Virus record (IMG/VR): IMGVR_UViG_3300001919_000129
Strand: one strand, 5' to 3'
DNA length: 7,937 bases
From: a virus
Lineage: Duplodnaviria; Heunggongvirae; Uroviricota; Caudoviricetes
Shown piece after piece: positions 2 through 7,797 of the stretch (its first letter is position 1; every line of letters begins with the position of its first letter). The translations under genes and the position numbers were made by a program. The notes under the pieces are model-generated. The model did not search any database. It saw only the letters and a program-made list of their open reading frames with translations, and was not told the origin of the DNA.

Positions 2-1300
2 ACGCTTCAGCTTATCAGGCAGAACAATGATATTGAGCGTTCAGGCGCTAACAATGTTGGGCTGACTGCTTTGCAAGGCCTTTCAGGTATTGCGGGGGTG
101 TTTCAGCAGGAAAAGCAGGCTCAGCGGCAGAAAGAATTTCAGCAGGCATACGCTAATGCTTATGCGTCTGGTGATCGCGGTGCTTTGCGTCAGTTGGCTA
201 CTCAATATCCAGACCAGATTGAATCCGTTCGTAAAGGCATGGGATTCATTGATGAAGATCAGCGTAATTCTATCGGCACCTTAGCGGCTGGCGCACGCCT
301 TGCGTCATCGTCTCCAGAAGCAATGCAATCATGGCTGCAAAACAACGCCAAGGAACTGACTCGCGTCGGTGTTGACCCCAACAGCGTTGCTCAGATGTAT
401 CAGCAGAATCCTTCAGGATTTGGTGAGTTTGTTGATCACCTTGGGATGGCTGCTCTTGGTCCGATTGATTACTTCAATGTTCAGGACAAGATGGCTGGTC
501 GTGAGATTGATCGCGGAAAACTTGCAGAGACAATCCGCAGCAATCAGGCTGGCGAGGCGCTAACAGCACGAGGCCAGAACATCACGATGCGCGGGCAGGA
601 CTTATCTGCTTCTACTGCGCGACGCGGGCAGGATTTGGCAATGCAGCGAGCGTCAACAAGAGGAACCGCTGGGAATGATGAGCGTACAGTTCAGTTATCA
701 GATGGCAGAACTGTAACGGTAGGCGGGAAGCTTCACGGCGCTGGGGCTAATGCGTTCTACGAAGGCATCGACAACGAGGGGAATATGGTTCGCGTTCCTG
801 CCAGTTCAATCGCAGCGCCTGCAACATCGTCTGCATCAGCACAAAACTATGCCATGAAGAAGGATATCGACGCGATCGCAAATGCAGACGCTTCTGCTCT
901 CGATTTCATGACAGGAATGACAGGCGGTGCAGGTAATCCAGCAATTGGTGCTGATGTTCGCAGCCGATTAACAGGAAAAGAGCAGCGCCAGTTATATAAC
1001 TCAGCACAACGTATTCAGGGCAGAATGCAGAATCAGGGTGTGGCGGCAGCAAGGGACATGGGTGCCAGTGGTATTAACACCGTTGCAGAAGCGAAGATGT
1101 ATTTTCAGGGGATGCCGCAGGTTGACTATTCAAGCCCGGAGGCTATGCAGCAGTCGATTCGTGAGATTCAGGAATACACCAACAATTACAACCAACAATA
1201 TAACGTTAATGTTGGTAAATCTCAGCGGCAGCAATCTCAACCTGCACAGGTATCACAGCCAGCAGCCAGCAGTAACTTTTCTTCACTATGGGGTGATTAA
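2..1300 (+). CDS. Virion ejection (internal) protein, P22 gp20-like by position; 5'-truncated by the window edge
   Basis: Reading frame is open from position 2 with no upstream stop, so the start at 71 in the ORF track is an internal TTG. Stop TAA at 1298-1300 overlaps the next start (TAATG). Assignment is by synteny, immediately upstream of a about 665-aa gp16-like gene and the tailspike. Protein is Q/A-rich with internal repeats. Confidence 0.6.
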
Positions 1301-3297
1301 TGGCTAAAGCATGGAAAGATGTTATCGCCTCTCCACAGTATCAGGCGTTAGCACCAGAACAAAAAGCGCAGGCTCAGGAGCAATACTTCAATGAAGTCGT
1401 TGCCCCGCAAGCCGGAGAAAATGCAGAGCAGGCTAAGCAAGCTTTCTATGCTGCCTATCCATTGCCATCTGTGCAGCCAGTGGAGACACAACAACCAGTA
1501 TCACAGCAACAACCACAGCAAAGTGGATTTATGTCGGATCTTGGTGAAGCCGTGAAAGAAACTGGTCGCGGACTGGTGCAGACTGGCGTGAACGTGGCAA
1601 ACATACCTGCATCAGTTGCCGATGCTGTAACAAGCGCGGCAGCTTGGGCTGGCGGTAAACTCGGCATTGGCGATGGTACATATCAACCAGCGCCACGAGT
1701 AACAACGCAGGGATTAGAGCAGGACTTTGGCCTTCAGCAAGGCGCGCTGACTCCACAAACTACAGAGGGCAGGGTATTTGCTGAAGCATTGCCTTACCTC
1801 ACTCCTGCTGGCGTTGAGAGAGCGGCAACACAGGCACCAACACTTGCTGGTCGAATTGCTCAGGGGGCAACTCGCCTTCTCGCTGAAAACGCAGTTGGAT
1901 CACTTGCTGCAAATAGTGCGAAAGATGATGCGGAAGCACTCGCCACCGATTTAGGCGTTGGTGTGCTGGCTGGCGGTGCTATTAACGCTGCCGGACGTGG
2001 ATTAGGTGCTGCTTATCGTGGCGTTCGTGGTTCTATTGCGCCAGAAGCGCAGCAGGCTATCAGATTTGCAGAGCGTGAAGGAGTTCCTCTGCACACCACA
2101 GACCTGTTACAACCAACTTCCCGCGTCGGAAAAATGGCGCAGACTACAGCAGAAAATATCCCTCTGGCTGGCACAAGCGGAATGAGAGCAACGCAACAGG
2201 AAGCGAGAAGCCAGTTGGTGCAGAGATTTGCTGATAAATTCGGCGAGTACGATCCGGCAGTTGTTATTGACAGCCTTAAAGCGAAAACATCAGGAATTCG
2301 TCGTGCTGCCGGTAATCGACTGGAGCAGGTTCAGAATGCTATGGCTGGAGTAAACATTCAGCCTGTGCGAGCAATTCAGCAGATTGATACTGAGATATCT
2401 AACCTGCAGAAGCTTGGTAAGGTCGCTGATAACGAGACGATTTCAAAACTTCAATCCTATCGTGATGAGCTTATTCGCAATGCTGGTCCTGATGGTCCGG
2501 TAAATCTGGATTTGAAGCAATTAAGCGATCTGCGCAGCCAGTTCAGAATGGACGTGAAGGGGGAACGACCAGTGCTACCAAACCGTTCCGATGCTGCCAT
2601 TCAGCGCGTTTACAAGGCAATGACCGACGATATCAATGGTGCCATTGGGCAGAATCTTGGCAACGATACTCTCCGTAAATATCAGCAGGCCAATGCCGTC
2701 TATGCTGACGAAGCAGCGAAACTAAAGAATACCAGGCTGAAGAATGTTCTCATGAAAGGCGATCTGACGCCGGAAGTTGTCAACAACATGCTATTCAGCA
2801 AGAACAAATCGGAAATTAAGACTCTGTATAACTCAGTTGGTCGTGTTGGCAGGGCGCAAATGCGCAATGGCATCATTGGAAAGGCGATGGAGAAATCAGG
2901 TGGTTCCCCTGACCAGTTCCTTCGACAGCTTAACATCCTGCAAAACCAGACTGGCATCACATTTAAAGGTCAGGATGCTGCTTATCTGAAAGGATTGAAA
3001 AACTACCTTCAATCCACGCAACAGGCAGCAAAAGCGGCAGTAACAACACCAACAGGGCAGCAAACCATCCCGTTCATTATCGGGTATGGGACGGCAATGA
3101 ACCCGGCGACAACTGGCGCAGCGGTAAGCTACGGACTTCTTACTCGCGCCTATGAGAGCGAGCCATTCAGAAATGCAATGCTCCGAATGGCAAACACACC
3201 ACGCGGATCGACAGCGTTTGAGAAAGCCATGCAGCAAGCGCAAAAAGCGATTAATGCACTGACGCAGGGTGCTAAGTCTGATTCGTTGTCAGAATAG
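1300..3297 (+). CDS. Virion ejection (internal) protein, P22 gp16-like by position and size (665 aa)
   Basis: Long uninterrupted ORF, ATG overlapping the upstream stop (TAATG), GGGGTG Shine-Dalgarno-like motif just upstream. Size and position match the last ejection-protein gene of P22-like phages. Has a Q/P-rich linker near the N-terminus. Not verified by search. Confidence 0.6.
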   Translation: MAKAWKDVIASPQYQALAPEQKAQAQEQYFNEVVAPQAGENAEQAKQAFYAAYPLPSVQPVETQQPVSQQQPQQSGFMSDLGEAVKETGRGLVQTGVNVANIPASVADAVTSAAAWAGGKLGIGDGTYQPAPRVTTQGLEQDFGLQQGALTPQTTEGRVFAEALPYLTPAGVERAATQAPTLAGRIAQGATRLLAENAVGSLAANSAKDDAEALATDLGVGVLAGGAINAAGRGLGAAYRGVRGSIAPEAQQAIRFAEREGVPLHTTDLLQPTSRVGKMAQTTAENIPLAGTSGMRATQQEARSQLVQRFADKFGEYDPAVVIDSLKAKTSGIRRAAGNRLEQVQNAMAGVNIQPVRAIQQIDTEISNLQKLGKVADNETISKLQSYRDELIRNAGPDGPVNLDLKQLSDLRSQFRMDVKGERPVLPNRSDAAIQRVYKAMTDDINGAIGQNLGNDTLRKYQQANAVYADEAAKLKNTRLKNVLMKGDLTPEVVNNMLFSKNKSEIKTLYNSVGRVGRAQMRNGIIGKAMEKSGGSPDQFLRQLNILQNQTGITFKGQDAAYLKGLKNYLQSTQQAAKAAVTTPTGQQTIPFIIGYGTAMNPATTGAAVSYGLLTRAYESEPFRNAMLRMANTPRGSTAFEKAMQQAQKAINALTQGAKSDSLSE

Positions 3298-3387
3298 CCT
3301 TTCAAACACCAGGAACGTGCAAAAACCAAATATGTAGAACGCGAGGTTTATCGTATCCCTCTGCATAGGCGATACCTTTGCTGATTG

Positions 3388-3873
3388 TTATCTGATGTTA
3401 CTGCTACTGTTGCATGTTACCGTGTTTCCAAATCCTGAATTGCAGTTTGTATATGTGTCAACTCGTGTTGGGTAATGTTGAGTTATAACAGGCTGGCGCG
3501 CTTTTTGCTCGATCGCTTGCATTGTGTTTACAGCCTGATAATTCAATAAAGCCTGCTGGAATGCTTGGCTTTGTGCTATTTGTTGGGCTTGTTCTTGGCT
3601 TTGTAATTGAACATAAAGATTCTGAAGCTCAAGTCTTGCCTGTGCGTCACTTATCTTGCCTTCATTGACACCTTGCCCGAGCATCTTTGCAGCAAGGACA
3701 TACAGCTTAGGTGTTGGTGCTGATGCCATGCGTGAGTCGTTCTTCACACTGGCATCAAGGCAATTAGCCATATCGCTAAGCTTTTGATAGCGTTGTTCGC
3801 AACTTGCTTGATAGTCACTTACTTTTGCGCATCCAACCAGCAGAAGCGGGATAATTAACAGTGATTTTTTCAT
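3388..3873 (-). CDS. Predicted lipoprotein (161 aa), function unknown, in the sieA-equivalent slot
   Basis: Start chosen at ATG 3873 (MKKSLLIIPLLLVGC...) because AAGGAG lies about 10 nt upstream; the ORF-track start at 3909 adds 12 residues before the signal peptide and has no SD. N-terminus is a classic signal peptide ending in a lipobox LVGC, with Ala at +2 (not an inner-membrane retention residue). Mature part has a Q-rich helical-looking segment and four further Cys. Sits 70 bp downstream of mnt on the same strand. Confidence 0.7.
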   Translation of the reverse strand: MKKSLLIIPLLLVGCAKVSDYQASCEQRYQKLSDMANCLDASVKNDSRMASAPTPKLYVLAAKMLGQGVNEGKISDAQARLELQNLYVQLQSQEQAQQIAQSQAFQQALLNYQAVNTMQAIEQKARQPVITQHYPTRVDTYTNCNSGFGNTVTCNSSSNIR

Positions 3874-3943
3874 ATGGTTAACTCTCCTTAGTTTTTCACA
3901 GGATATCATGAAGGCTATGCCATTTTAGCCGGAAACTAGATTT

Positions 3944-4210
3944 CTATGTTTCCTTTTTATTATTGCTATACATGGTCTTAAGCGTTTCAAAAACCATTTT
4001 CTTAACCATATCAGATTGTTGTTCTGCCATACGCTCTGCATCGTCAATGTAAACGGATGCAGAGCTTTGTTTAGCCAACGATTCTTCAATCGCTGCAATT
4101 ATCTCTGAGTTCAGCGATCTGTTATTCATCTTCGCACGCTGCTTAATTTTCGCGTGGAGTTCATGCGGAAGTCTCAAGTGAAACTGCGCCTCGTCGTATT
4201 TACTGTACAT
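3944..4210 (-). CDS. mnt: Mnt-family ribbon-helix-helix transcriptional repressor (88 aa)
   Basis: Aligns along its full length with P22 Mnt as I recall it: N-terminal RHH strand QFHLRLP versus HFNFRMP, the RSLNSEI helix versus RSMNSEL, and C-terminal DDAERMAEQQSDMVKKMVFETLKTMY versus NDAERLADEQSELVKKMVFDTLKDLY. Start set at ATG 4210 (MYSKYDE...) to match the P22 Mnt N-terminus; an in-frame ATG at 4243 is an alternative. Confidence 0.85.
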   Translation of the reverse strand: MYSKYDEAQFHLRLPHELHAKIKQRAKMNNRSLNSEIIAAIEESLAKQSSASVYIDDAERMAEQQSDMVKKMVFETLKTMYSNNKKET

Positions 4211-4331
4211 CCTTGATGCCTCACCAGTTGGGTGGAATGGCATCGTAACCTACTGGATAAATACTCAATAGTACCATTTCGGTATGCAATCACATCATGG
4301 TTGCATCATATCATTCGTCTGGAGTAATGAA
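4211..4331. promoter_or_regulatory. Divergent control region between mnt (leftward) and tailspike (rightward); candidate operator and promoters
   Basis: AT-rich 120-bp spacer between divergent genes. Inverted repeat ATGCAA (4284-4289) / TTGCAT (4301-4306); short palindrome TACTCAATAGTA (4262-4273); TATCAT at 4309-4314; GGAG SD at 4321-4324 for the tailspike. Exact -35/-10 elements could not be fixed by eye. Confidence 0.4.
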
Positions 4332-6515
4332 ATGTCAGATATCACCGCAAATGTTGTGGTAAGCATGCCTTCGCAACTCTTCACTATGGCGCGTTCTTTT
4401 AAAGCGGTTGCCAATGGCAAAATTTATATCGGAAAAATTGACACTGACCCGGTAAATCCAGAAAACCAGATCCAGGTTTATGTGGAGAACGAAGATGGCT
4501 CTCATGTTCCTGTTTCGCAACCAATCATCATTAACGCTGCCGGATATCCGGTATATAACGGACAGATTGCCAAATTCGTTACCGTGCAAGGCCATTCTAT
4601 GGCTGTTTATGATGCATATGGTGCTCAGCAATTCTATTTCCCTAATGTGCTGAAGTATGATCCAGACCAATTTAAGAACCAATTGCTTATACTAGATGAA
4701 ACAGCACAGGATTTTAATCAGACAAAACCTTACATTATTCAAAGCGTTTCTCAGTTGCTGCAGAAAGACTTTACTGGTATTGAAAAAATAACAGTTTTCA
4801 CATACATGAACCAGCACGGAATAAAAGTGAAATCTGAATGGTATGTTGGATTAGAGAAGATAGATAATACTTATTCACTCAATCTTCCAAATGGTTATTT
4901 TGCTAATTTAATCCTTACATCTGAGATGGACTATTCAGAGTTTGGCTTTGGAAGTTCAGACCCGGAAAAAAATTCCGCAGCGATTGCCGAGGCTTGTAGA
5001 GTTGCTCGCGCAAATCAGATTATGAGCAAACTCACATTCCCGTCAGGAGTTTACTTTTCTGATAAGTTTGATTTAGATGTTGATCGCCGTGGTTTTATTT
5101 TTTCAGGAGCTGGAAATGACGCAACAATAATCATGTCAACGTCATCTAACATATCGATGCACCATGTGGGAATTGATCCTCGCGACAGGAGCAGAGATCG
5201 TCTCCACTGGCACCAAACAGTTGAAGGTTTCACCGTAAATGGAAACATTTCTAATAATGGCGCTAGTGCATCAGCAAGAGCCGTATACACAGCTCCTTAT
5301 GCTACTATTAGAAATAAATCAATTGATCACCGCATCAGTAATTATGATCTTTTACATCTGGTTATTAATTGGCATGGTCATTCGCAAGGAACAACAAATG
5401 GCTCCACCAGAACTAAGTATGGTGTTCGCGTTAGAAATAACTCTATCAAATTAATGGGTTACATTGGGAGCAGCGCTAACAATCAGTGTACTTTGTCTAT
5501 TGAAGGTATGAGCACAACCCTGACATCTACAGCATATGTAAATGACAACACTGTTACTGTTGCTGATGCTTCTGGTTTTGATACGTTGTTTGAAATTGCA
5601 TTCACCAATTCAACTGGAGGTGTAGAGACACGTCGTATCACAGCAATCTCGGGAAACGTTATAACACTTGATAGACCAATGACGTCTGAGTTCCAGTCTG
5701 GGACTAAGGTTGAAGTTCCCATTATTGGGACGTCAGTAATTTCAAGTACAATTGAAACTGGTGAGATAAGAATTGGTGACAGTCAGGCAACTTATATCGC
5801 AGGAAACTACAGCGAAGAGGCAAAGATGTATATAACAAAATACGTTAGAGCTTTGACTGTCACTGGAACATCAACAGCAGAGGCTTCACCGGCTATTACA
5901 ATTGAAGTAGACAGGCGTTCATCTATAAAAATTGAAGGAAATGACACTACGTTTTCTATCTCGGTAAACATAACAGACCGTTCTGGAAGTGTTGGTGAAC
6001 GCATTGACCTATACAATGCGCCTAAGCTGGATATTAAAATGAACACTCGTGCTCAAAATTCAATTATCTTGAATGGGGTATATGGATTCAGCAGCCTTCG
6101 TATTGAAAAGACGTTCGATTCTGTTTCTCAGGATGAAAGATTTAACCGGATGACTTTCTCTGGCTTCAATCACGTTGCACCTGCTGGAGGTTCAGTCACT
6201 GAAGTTATGAAATTTTTTCAGGATGCTACACAGTTCGGGTTTGATGGTTACACGTTTGACCTGGATATTACGTGCAGGAGGGATGGTGCTTCTGCAGCTG
6301 TTACGCCTGGCATACTGAAGCGATACGGGACATCATCAGCTGCACCAGTTGCACAAAATTCTGCTCCAGTAAGTCTTTTTTCAGACTTTAATGAGATAAA
6401 TGGCTATAATGTCTTTATTGGCGCATCTGGTAATAGAGGTACAGTGCAAGTAAGGCCAAATCCAACATCACAAATAAAATCAACTATAAATGGCACTGTT
6501 ACTTCCATAATATAG
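4332..6515 (+). CDS. Tailspike protein (727 aa): P22 gp9-type N-terminal head-binding domain fused to a divergent receptor-binding domain
   Basis: Start at ATG 4332 ([10 protein letters not shown]...) with GGAG 7 nt upstream; the ORF-track start at 4284 is an in-frame upstream ATG inside the control region. Residues 1 to about 114 (through [10 protein letters not shown]) match the P22 gp9 N-terminal domain nearly residue for residue from memory. Downstream sequence is unrelated to P22 gp9 and visibly more AT-rich. Confidence 0.9.
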
Positions 6516-6534
6516 TTTGCATAGGGAAATTGAG

Positions 6535-6583
6535 ACAAAAACGGGACACACAAAGCTTTGCACTGGATTACAAGGCTTTGTGT
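6535..6583 (-). terminator. Candidate intrinsic terminator for the integrase gene
   Basis: Read on the minus strand, a stem ACACAAAGC (6548-6556) / GCTTTGTGT (6575-6583) with an 18-nt loop is followed by GTTTTTGT (complement of 6535-6542), about 20 nt past the int stop. Confidence 0.4.
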
Positions 6584-6595
6584 CATTCGATAGCT

Positions 6596-6617
6596 AAGGT
6601 GGATCACTCCACCTTTT
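6596..6617 (+). terminator. Candidate intrinsic terminator for the tailspike gene, overlapping the int stop codon
   Basis: Perfect 8-bp stem AAGGTGGA (6596-6603) / TCCACCTT (6608-6615) with 4-nt loop TCAC, followed by TT; the U-tract is short, so strength is uncertain. The complement of the int stop (6604-6606) lies in the loop. Confidence 0.3.
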
Positions 6618-7761
6618 CATCAAGCCAGTCCGCCCACCACTGCATCATTTCTCTGCGCTTATCGAGATACTGAGCATGGTTGTAAATCCCGCGCACAGAT
6701 CCGCCGTTGGCATGTGCCAGTTGCACTTCAATAGCATCAGCAGGCCATTCGTGCTCGTTCATAATCGTGCTGAATTCATGCCTGAATCCGTGACCGCTTT
6801 CCAGCCCTTCATAGCCAATTTGTTTGATCACAAGCAATACCGCGTTCTCGCAGATTGGCTTCTTCTTATCGTTGCGCCCGGCAAAAACAAACTCTGACAC
6901 TGGTTTAGTGATTGAGCTTAGCGTAGTGAGAAGTTCAATCACCTGGTCTGACATCGGTACTACATGAATCTTGCGGCCCTTCATCACACTGGCGTCGATG
7001 GTGATAATCCTGTTTTCAAAATCGACGTTCTTCCATAGCATGGAACGAAGCTCTTTTGTTCTGAGGGCTGTGTAGCGTAAAACTTTAGTCGCAATAAGCG
7101 ATACGATACTTCCTGAAAATGTTGCCAGTGCTTTATTGAATGCTGGGATCTGGTCGGCAGGTAAAAACGGGAAGTTCTTCTTGCGGTATCCCTTCATGGC
7201 GTCAGCAAGGTCAGGTGCCGGGTTATATTTAGCCCTACCGGTGACAATAGCGTAACGGAAAACCTCGCCGCATCTTCTGCGTGCTTTGTTGGCTCGTTCC
7301 ATTGCACCGCGATCTTCAAATCTGCGGATTACTTCCAGCAGTTGCATCGGCTCAATATCCTGAATTTCAAGGCCGCCGATGATAGGTAAAATGTCGTCAT
7401 CAAACATTTTTGCAAGTTCAGTTGCATAGCCTACTGACCAGACTTGCTTCTTGTGCTCGTACCATTCCTTGTAAATCGCACTAAATGAATTGTTGTTAGA
7501 CGAAGCCTTTTTCGCCTTTACCGGATCGATGCCAACCGAGATGTCTTTCCTCGCAGTCCATGCTTTATCCCTTGCCTCCTGCAAAGTCATAAGCGGATAT
7601 TTTCCGACGGTCAGGATTTTCTCCTTACCGTCAATCTTGTAGCGAAGCTGCCATACCTTTTTCCCGGATACAGGGACATAAAGGTACAGGCCATTACCAT
7701 CGAGAAGGCGATATGGTTTTTCTTTCGGCTTTGCTGCTTCAATCTGCTTAACGGTGAGCAT
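6604..7761 (-). CDS. intS: Tyrosine recombinase, P4/IntS-type phage integrase (385 aa)
   Basis: N-terminus MLTVKQIEAAKPKEKPYRLLDGNGLYLYV is the typical arm-binding (DUF4102-like) start of P4-family integrases, and the C-terminus carries catalytic-domain hallmarks (HGFRHEF..., VQLAHANGGSVRGIYNHAQY). Start set at ATG 7761; the ORF-track start at 7797 is a GTG that would fall at or upstream of the predicted transcript start. The intS symbol is assigned by family, size and tRNA adjacency, not by search. Confidence 0.88.
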   Translation of the reverse strand: MLTVKQIEAAKPKEKPYRLLDGNGLYLYVPVSGKKVWQLRYKIDGKEKILTVGKYPLMTLQEARDKAWTARKDISVGIDPVKAKKASSNNNSFSAIYKEWYEHKKQVWSVGYATELAKMFDDDILPIIGGLEIQDIEPMQLLEVIRRFEDRGAMERANKARRRCGEVFRYAIVTGRAKYNPAPDLADAMKGYRKKNFPFLPADQIPAFNKALATFSGSIVSLIATKVLRYTALRTKELRSMLWKNVDFENRIITIDASVMKGRKIHVVPMSDQVIELLTTLSSITKPVSEFVFAGRNDKKKPICENAVLLVIKQIGYEGLESGHGFRHEFSTIMNEHEWPADAIEVQLAHANGGSVRGIYNHAQYLDKRREMMQWWADWLDEKVE

Positions 7762-7797
7762 GGGTAAAAATCCGGTGGGTAAAATTATTTTATCCAC

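Follow-up and report, generated by a model that had tools for sequence, protein, structure and literature searches.

What fills the place of sieA in P22-like prophages that carry another gene there, and what might its product do? The question is raised by a window of 7,937 nucleotides (the whole stretch of DNA analyzed; IMG/VR record IMGVR_UViG_3300001919_000129), which is the right end of a P22-like (Lederbergvirus) prophage of Escherichia coli. Between the gene for the ejection protein gp16 and a gene for an mnt-type repressor, it carries an open reading frame (ORF) for a lipoprotein of 161 amino acids (aa). An earlier note, made from the sequence, had proposed this protein as a superinfection-exclusion or lysogenic-conversion factor. 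We show here that P22-like prophages carry the lipoprotein gene as an independent piece of cargo (a moron). Its product is predicted to go to the envelope and belongs to a protein family new to annotation, and the characterized occupant of its slot is an exclusion gene. By analogy, superinfection exclusion at the envelope would be its likeliest function, a reading that we put forward tentatively. The gene and the cassette that contains it lie as follows.

3388-3873, minus strand: lipoprotein ORF, coding sequence of the 161-aa prolipoprotein; full-length match to PHROG 6067 (E 4e-109), annotated 'unknown function'.
3369-4315, no strand assigned: cassette of 947 bp (lipoprotein gene, mnt and control region), absent from Sf6 and vB_EcoP-683R2; flanking homology ends at 3368 and resumes at 4316.

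In P22, gp16 (rightward) is followed by sieA (leftward, with its own promoter, PsieA), a terminator, orf59a and mnt (both leftward), and then arc, ant and gene 9 (rightward). In E. coli HS, gp16 is immediately followed by a type-B sieA (212 aa, motif FNRYPGEARKFNK). The lipoprotein gene occupies this same position, convergent with gp16 and co-oriented with mnt, as the earlier note had recognized. It also recurs in the slot in every context that we read, which answers the suggestion in that note that P22-like prophages be searched for it. The position is kept in phages Gally, vB_EcoP-720R6 and VSe13, Proteus phage Brookers and Salmonella MS2 LVA; in E. coli O104:H4 C227-11, two large-genome strains resembling Shiga toxin-producing E. 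coli (STEC) and JNE131328; in Serratia, Klebsiella aerogenes, Yersinia ruckeri, Morganella, Providencia and two Tatumella species; and in 80 of 80 IMG/VR viral contigs (the best 80 of 128 contigs encoding relatives). A scan of species-representative genomes gave five loci. In all, the slot gene is found in phages of Escherichia, Salmonella, Citrobacter, Serratia, Klebsiella, Cronobacter, Yersinia, Pectobacterium, Morganella, Providencia, Proteus and Tatumella.

The two kinds of occupant were never found together. SieA of type A or B was seen beside the lipoprotein in none of the 80 IMG/VR contigs, even at a tblastn E of 10, and among phage records 5 have the lipoprotein and 41 have SieA, with zero overlap. 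The prophages of O104:H4 and HS have gp16 genes that are about 97% identical until 30 bp before the stop codon; beyond that junction, HS has SieA-B and O104:H4 has the lipoprotein. With a shared gp16 followed by a different occupant and no overlap, the lipoprotein and SieA are best described as alternative alleles of one slot.

The slot can also be empty. Sf6 and vB_EcoP-683R2 have gp16 genes 98 to 99% identical to that of the window, and only 164 bp and no gene separate gp16 from the tailspike gene. Where the lipoprotein gene is present, it is freely combined with its neighbors: the adjacent gp16 is Sf6 type in 38 contigs, P22/HS type in 23 and of other types in 13, and the gene is found with three mnt alleles, with or without arc and ant. 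Together with transcription of an ortholog from the prophage (see below), these observations bear out the idea that the gene is a moron. Among 5,426 complete E. coli genomes, 186 carry the lipoprotein gene (190 places) and 21 carry an HS1-type sieA; the same genomes hold 1,336 P22-type tailspike head-binding loci, about 14% of which (190/1,336) hold the lipoprotein. Among P22-like phages that have been isolated, SieA is known only from Salmonella-infecting ones. The copy in JNE131328 (4001-4471 of its locus) is annotated as a pseudogene with an internal stop, and thus the lipoprotein gene can be lost.

Other genes were seen in the same region. In Gally, an unrelated 139-aa lipoprotein (GALLYPH_14/LF82_139, 4447-4866 of the locus; MKRIIGVVAGAILLSGC), which belongs to PHROG 6823 and has a weak PEGA-domain match, is encoded in antisense in the gap that separates mnt from the lipoprotein gene; about 10 of the 80 IMG/VR contigs have it too. 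A Tatumella terrea prophage has a 112-aa secreted protein between mnt and the lipoprotein gene (5604-5942 of its locus; Pfam Rap1a, PF18602, E 1e-13), and Rap1a is an immunity family for type VI secretion system (T6SS) peptidoglycan-amidase effectors. The slot holds a 153-aa membrane-anchored protein in Providencia (5519-5980 of its locus), a 112-aa multi-pass membrane protein in Tatumella morbirosei (6440-6778) and, in O104:H4, a 104-aa protein in the orf59a position (4511-4825). Judged by these predicted products, the slot region is a hotspot for envelope cargo.

Is the ORF a real gene, and where does it begin? The list of ORFs in the window offers a longer frame (3388-3909, 173 codons, ATG at 3909). 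Similarity to the DNA of the closest phage, Gally, ends at 3890, and therefore the 12-codon upstream extension is unconserved. The ATG at 3873, the start adopted in the earlier note, is the real one, given the spacing of the Shine-Dalgarno sequence AAGGAGAG before it, the end of the Gally similarity and the homologues in other genera, all of which begin at MKK or VKK. Compared with the Gally and O104:H4 alleles, the ratio of nonsynonymous to synonymous substitution rates (dN/dS) is 0.08 and 0.17, respectively. In comparisons with other genera, synonymous sites are saturated and the nonsynonymous differences (pN) are only 0.13 to 0.31; the Providencia allele was left out of the dN/dS comparison because a one-codon insertion shifts it out of register. 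The ORF is thus a real gene under purifying selection, and it has 94 homologous clusters in Enterobacterales. Its signals, read from the sequence, are these.

3829-3873, minus strand: signal peptide and lipobox, residues 1-15, MKKSLLIIPLLLVG-C.
3882-3889, minus strand: Shine-Dalgarno sequence AAGGAGAG, 8 nt before the ATG at 3873.
3900-3908, minus strand: candidate extended -10 element TGATATCCT, 26 nt before the start codon; not called by the consensus scan.

Lipoproteins cleaved by signal peptidase II begin with a charged n-region and an uncharged h-region, followed by a lipobox of the form [LVI][ASTVI][GAS]C, with the Cys at about residues 15 to 35 (the PROSITE PS51257-type rule). The window protein follows this rule. 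It starts MKKSLLIIPLLLVGC, with an n-region MKK containing two Lys, an uncharged h-region SLLIIPLL and the lipobox LVGC, so that the Cys is at position 15 and the mature protein would start C-AKV, with Ala at +2 and Lys at +3. The LLVGC lipobox and the Ala at +2 pointed out in the earlier note are therefore there, and the lipobox is kept in 239 of 260 family members; Cys15 is invariant in the homologue alignments. The residue at +2 among the 260 is Ala in 179, Thr in 17, Val in 12 and Ser in 9 and is never Asp, so that the Lol-avoidance signal (Asp at +2) is absent, as expected of an outer-membrane lipoprotein. We infer cleavage by signal peptidase II and lipidation at Cys15 from these features. 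Since +2 is Ala instead of Asp, the protein would then be sorted by Lol to the inner leaflet of the outer membrane, exposed to the periplasm and able to form disulfides there.

The predicted structure is of a bundle, a stalk and a small hairpin. A first AlphaFold model, made with 46 close sequences, was poor (predicted local distance difference test [pLDDT] 64); AlphaFold2 with a 135-sequence alignment gave a pLDDT of 87.5 and a predicted template modeling score (pTM) of 0.64. In this model, helices at 18-28, 32-45 and 53-70 are followed by a single 50-residue helix (76-125), the first part of which closes a four-helix bundle while its Gln-rich remainder projects free. A Pro-containing linker then leads to a beta-hairpin (139-146/152-159). 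Both the Gln-rich helical segment and the Cys-containing C-terminal tail that the earlier note had noticed are accounted for in these parts.

3586-3822, minus strand: N-terminal helical bundle, residues 18-96 (pLDDT 94-98); holds the majority of the invariant residues, and its Cys25 and Cys38 are conserved.
3499-3585, minus strand: Gln-rich helical stalk, residues 97-125, the free part of helix 76-125 (pLDDT 87-97).
3397-3459, minus strand: C-terminal beta-hairpin, residues 139-159 (pLDDT 54-79), with conserved Cys144 and Cys154.

The hairpin carries the motif T-N-C-x3-4-G-N-x-V/T-x-C, in which Cys154 is invariant. Among the 260 family members, C-x(n)-G-x(n)-C forms the end of 148, and in 181 the lipid Cys is followed by exactly four more; the four conserved Cys would fit two periplasmic disulfides. 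The sequence of the stalk differs between genera. Within the phage clade, the bundle is highly conserved and the stalk and C terminus come in two variants, ending ...TNCNSGFGNTVTCNSSSNIR and ...TTNCTTYGNQTRCQSY.

A family profile searched against 1.84 billion representative proteins found 241 clusters at E of 1e-3 or less, most of which match over the bundle domain. Most are lipoproteins of 125 to 140 aa sharing one plan: a core after the lipobox (GC-A/T-x-V-x-x-Q-x-x-CE ... C-L ... KLY-x-L-x-A ... G-x-I-S ... A-R-x-x-LQ-x-x-Y), a variable linker and a C-terminal T-x-C-x3-G-x4-C, often with a final Tyr or Arg. No Pfam family matched the window protein or any of 135 relatives (Rap1a, PF18602, included). 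NCBIfam gave nothing above threshold (GspK reached 19.6 bits against a cutoff of 130), PADLOC gave no family match for the window protein, and sequence-profile searches of the PDB found no relative. A Foldseek search of the first model (pLDDT 64) against the PDB and BFVD, a viral predicted-structure library, found nothing at E below 0.001. A hit to PHROG 2952, 'minor tail protein' (E 0.005, residues 43-132), was rejected as a compositional match over the Gln-rich helix. Homology to a virion structural or lysis protein, which the earlier note had named as evidence against its own proposal, was thus looked for and not found. No study of the protein turned up in literature searches based on its accession, its PHROG number and keywords.

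Remote family members have heterogeneous surroundings, and no conserved partner gene was found when one was sought beside them. One is flanked by a Zn-peptidase gene and earP, next to the bio operon, a chromosomal location, and another lies between dsbB and ycgN-minCDE. The neighborhoods of others are of a mobile or defense type (a serine recombinase with Prim-Pol, ThsB-TIR with SLATT, a TIR gene, DUF4365). To judge from these sequences, the phage gene seems to have been recruited from a lipoprotein family that is widespread in bacteria, as is documented for other morons (PMC3594210). A member from an alphaproteobacterial metagenome-assembled genome (P0230, 295 aa; L014/L015 6001-6888) has two tandem bundle domains and a single C-terminal Cys hairpin and adjoins a copper-resistance cluster and a ThsB-TIR/SLATT/QueC island. 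A gene similar to DNA polymerase III theta (HolE/Hot) lies beside the member between dsbB and ycgN (L017 5438-6411), and theta-like genes also lie near the tailspike/integrase end of Proteus and Morganella P22-like prophages (L002 2513-2806; L023 295-597; L024 772-996). Given this shared neighbor, the 'chromosomal' dsbB-ycgN copy may be a prophage remnant.

Is the gene expressed from a prophage? Strand-resolved RNA sequencing (RNA-Seq) of E. coli LF82 (Misson et al. 2023, PMC9928086, S1 Table) covers the Gally prophage ortholog, LF82_138/GALLYPH_13, which is 96% identical to the window protein. The values, given as log2(fpkm+5) (fpkm, fragments per kilobase per million) in two replicates, are those of the ortholog and not of the window gene itself. 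In lysogeny broth (LB) at stationary phase it stood at 6.29/5.96, second among the Gally genes after the C2 repressor, and its normalized value of 70 was 4.5 times the prophage median of 15.6. It reached 7.9 to 8.2 in Dulbecco's modified Eagle's medium (DMEM) and, in macrophages, 10.29/10.30 at 1 h and 8.70/8.54 at 6 h, rises of about 4-fold in DMEM and about 16-fold in macrophages at 1 h. The convergent gp16 gene of Gally stayed at 3.6 to 4.1 throughout, and mnt was at 3.87/3.57 in LB, where the lipoprotein RNA was about five times the mnt RNA (PMC9928086). Transcription in the lysogen, which the earlier note had suggested as a check, was therefore seen for this ortholog while the late genes were silent.

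The induction is shared by adjacent genes. The RNAs of Gally mnt, the tailspike gene and gene 17 were all up in macrophages, and GALLYPH_14 was still more strongly induced in DMEM and macrophages (log2 of about 10 to 11). The authors, who list the gene as 'hypothetical', describe the 'five rightmost genes' of Gally as induced 6- to 40-fold in macrophages (PMC9928086, S1 Table); since the order of that table makes these genes 13 to 17, gene 13 counts among them.

The earlier note had supposed co-transcription with mnt from the Mnt-autoregulated promoter (Pmnt). A terminator and promoter scan of the window called no consensus promoter for the lipoprotein gene and no intrinsic terminator in the gap after mnt, where the only hairpins lack a U-tract. 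With a 70-bp gap and no predicted terminator, readthrough from Pmnt is possible, and to that extent the supposition stands. Other contexts point away from it: in Gally, the lipoprotein RNA exceeds that of mnt and an antisense gene lies between the two, and mnt is absent from the Yersinia and Morganella prophages that carry the lipoprotein gene. Elements similar to the candidate extended -10 element (TGnTAT..CT) are found at the same distance in two Tatumella prophages. In Serratia and Klebsiella, an antisense Bro-N gene lies upstream and there is a good predicted promoter (TTGTCA-15-TGtTAAAAT); a clear predicted sigma-70 promoter also lies upstream in the Morganella context. The upstream gap is only 14 to 17 bp in Brookers and Providencia. 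Gene arrangement thus indicates that the lipoprotein gene is not dependent on mnt. Upstream of GALLYPH_13 (about 4900-5000 of the locus), AGTTAA-N5-CATTTA bears a loose likeness to the PhoP-box consensus, and this element might relate to the macrophage induction.

The remaining genes of the window are listed here.

71-1300, plus strand: gp20 (Pfam Inj_translocase).
1300-3297, plus strand: gp16 ejection protein, Sf6 type (PHROG 770, E 4e-239); left border of the slot, convergent with the lipoprotein gene.
3944-4243, minus strand: mnt-type Arc-family repressor gene (Pfam Arc, E 1e-14; Repressor_Mnt, E 4e-12), co-oriented with and 70 bp upstream of the lipoprotein gene.
4332-6515, plus strand: tailspike with a P22-type head-binding domain (Pfam Head_binding, E 2e-67), GGAG upstream of the MSDITANVV start; right border of the slot.
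6604-7797, minus strand: IntS-type integrase.

The gp16 protein is 98.2% identical to the Sf6 gene 13 protein. Its residues 162-384 match a PHROG annotated 'transglycosylase' (E 2e-31), and a true N-terminal SLT domain is fused to gp16 in Tatumella and Klebsiella relatives. The lipoprotein gene had been described as more AT-rich than the neighboring ejection genes, and its GC content of 0.432 is indeed below that of gp16 (0.507) and gp20 (0.51), a difference of the kind expected of a moron; however, mnt (0.42) and the tailspike gene (0.403) are equally AT-rich. The gene content across the window includes neither arc nor ant. Only about 90 bp separate mnt from the start of the tailspike gene, and between them lies an inverted repeat, ATGCAATCA/TGGTTGCAT (4284-4306), which could be the operator of the window Mnt. 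An mnt gene without arc or ant, with a candidate operator near the tailspike gene, suggests that Mnt here may control something other than an antirepressor. PHROG 8280 ('colanic acid degradation') matches the tailspike up to residue 580. In its receptor-binding part the tailspike is of a rare kind: coverage of the window stays below 80% in every complete E. coli genome.

What, then, might the lipoprotein do? The case for envelope-level superinfection exclusion comes from its position and its mutual exclusivity with SieA, a protein that blocks DNA delivery through gp16/gp20 (PMC10883804). The prophage-state transcription of the ortholog, the predicted envelope targeting and the other envelope-type occupants of the slot are in keeping with it. 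We imagine that the bundle, anchored in the outer membrane, would project its stalk (about 30 free residues) and small disulfide hairpin into the periplasm. After a P22-like virion has adsorbed, the lipoprotein might interfere, from the outer-membrane or periplasmic side, with the gp7/gp20/gp16 conduit, or might mask an outer-membrane component that this conduit needs; in either case, incoming DNA would be kept from the cytoplasm. The lipoprotein would then be a functional alternative to the inner-membrane SieA, unrelated to it by descent. A broader version, quite speculative and in our judgment unlikely, is that the lipoprotein represents a new class of exclusion factor, an outer-membrane-tethered stalk with a disulfide knob that keeps short-tailed phages from assembling their ejection-protein conduit, and that the wider family is an envelope anti-phage layer.

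Several points weigh against exclusion. The literature searched holds no exclusion, adsorption or DNA-entry experiment on any family member, and there is no sequence or fold similarity to SieA, Cor, Llp, Ltp or HK97 gp15. Lipidation and outer-membrane location are themselves predictions. The exclusivity with SieA could be mere allelic replacement at a recombination hotspot, with no function shared. A host-adaptation gene would be expected to be strongly induced in DMEM and macrophages, as the ortholog is, and the authors of the LF82 study did not score the gene as a moron because its value of 70 is just below their 5-fold cutoff of 78. Finally, remote relatives lie in ordinary chromosomal neighborhoods, suggesting that the ancestral role of the family was not phage exclusion.

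Some of the same observations lead to the possibility, which we consider doubtful but serious, that the protein acts in lysogenic conversion, protecting the host envelope or adapting it, without excluding phages. It could be an inhibitor of or decoy for lysozyme, T6SS amidases or bacteriocins or could confer resistance to serum or host defenses in the manner of Bor, Iss or TraT. The rise of the ortholog RNA in DMEM and macrophages, alongside that of a second lipoprotein gene, is in keeping with such a role, as are the Rap1a-family immunity gene that adjoins in the Tatumella slot and the family members that are chromosomal or lie beside defense-type genes (TIR, SLATT, DUF4365). Indeed, the induction and the chromosomal relatives fit a nonexclusion envelope role equally well. 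Yet deletion of the whole Gally prophage left survival of LF82 in macrophages unchanged at 6 and 24 h (PMC9928086), no homology to MliC/PliC/Ivy, Rap1a, Bor or TraT was found, and no effector or toxin gene adjoins in any context examined. The sole slot occupant characterized by experiment, SieA, is an exclusion protein.

That the protein serves the phage during its own cycle seems improbable. The lipoprotein might spare progeny from losing their DNA on lysing cells or debris, the role proposed for T5 Llp, or might aid or time the ejection or lysis machinery. The gene does always adjoin ejection-protein genes, P22 sieA is itself upregulated on induction (PMC10883804), and the modeled stalk-plus-knob architecture might loosely recall the o-spanins. 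These points are set against a gene that is antisense to the late operon and transcribed while late genes are silent, that combines freely with unrelated gp16 types, and that is dispensable: Sf6, 683R2, HF4s and IME10 share the gp16 type without it, and one E. coli copy is a pseudogene. Ordinary lysis cassettes are found elsewhere in Gally and HS1. We give very little credence to the view that it is a bacterial lipoprotein gene acquired as a passenger at a recombination hotspot, with no selected function for the phage. Chromosomal relatives exist, one copy is pseudogenized, and the mosaic junctions hug the ORF (3369, 3890), all of which a passenger would explain. It would not explain the strong purifying selection (dN/dS 0.08 to 0.17), conservation over at least 12 genera with synonymous sites saturated, the same slot kept from Escherichia to Tatumella phages or the regulated expression.

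The identity of this gene matters in part because of where it is found. In complete E. coli genomes it outnumbers HS1-type sieA about ninefold, and the clinically important strains whose prophages have it include O104:H4 outbreak isolates, large-genome STEC and the Crohn's-associated strain LF82. If it does act in exclusion, it would open a second, mechanistically distinct way to study the passage of the gp7/gp20/gp16 conduit across the envelope and would bear on host range in phage therapy; as an outer-membrane counterpart of SieA, the lipoprotein would be the commonest occupant of the sieA slot in E. coli. If the family were a new exclusion class, its 241 or more clusters, many of them chromosomal, would represent a widespread and unrecognized envelope-level anti-phage defense. 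If it is not an exclusion factor, pathogens still have in it a prophage lipoprotein that is induced in macrophages. In both cases, it offers a first functional foothold in a large lipoprotein family that has no Pfam entry or solved structure.

That leaves the comparison with known systems. SieA (types A, B and C; PHROG 7745; Leavitt et al. 2024, PMC10883804) is the closest in setting: it shares the slot after gp16, the orientation antisense to the late operon, the mnt side of immI and a similar size (164 to 212 aa, compared with 161 aa). Both are expressed from the prophage and located in the envelope (by prediction for the lipoprotein), and the two are mutually exclusive in every genome examined. 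As the earlier note had put it, the lipoprotein is a positional analogue and not a SieA homologue; BLASTP gave no alignment at E of 100 or less, and it belongs to PHROG 6067, not 7745. The cytoplasmic motif FxRYPxEAxxFNK of SieA, found in HS1 SieA-B, is absent from it. SieA is a polytopic inner-membrane protein, whereas the only hydrophobic stretch of the lipoprotein is its cleavable signal, and the rest is modeled as a soluble bundle and stalk. Exclusion is demonstrated for SieA and is suggested by analogy for the lipoprotein.

Cor (of phi80, N15 and HK022) and T5 Llp are small outer-membrane lipoproteins that block the FhuA receptor. Like them, the window protein is a phage-encoded lipoprotein with an outer-membrane sorting signal and a proposed action at the envelope, but it is twice as long and follows a bundle-stalk-hairpin plan. 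The analogy with these proteins, which the earlier note had found plausible, gained no support from sequence or fold; the PHROG scan found only phrog_6067, and Llp (8a60_B) was touched through the signal peptide alone (E 0.18). P22-like phages adsorb to O-antigen, with no known requirement for FhuA. An Rz1-type o-spanin would differ in its place, since the lipoprotein gene is outside the lysis cassette, between gp16 and mnt and antisense to the late operon.

Lambda Bor/Iss and TraT of the F plasmid are outer-membrane lipoproteins that give serum resistance, and TraT also acts in surface exclusion through OmpA. Like the lipoprotein, they are lipoprotein morons expressed from a resident element and, as is predicted for it, located in the outer membrane; the Bor of the LF82 prophage Perceval is likewise induced in DMEM (PMC9928086); no sequence relationship to them was found. 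The inner-membrane exclusion moron gp15 of HK97 (Cumby et al. 2012, PMC3594210) belongs to another protein family, another membrane and another phage type, and an exclusion role like that of gp15 would be ascribed to the lipoprotein by analogy. The resemblance lies in origin: each is a prophage moron with ordinary bacterial relatives, apparently co-opted by the phage.

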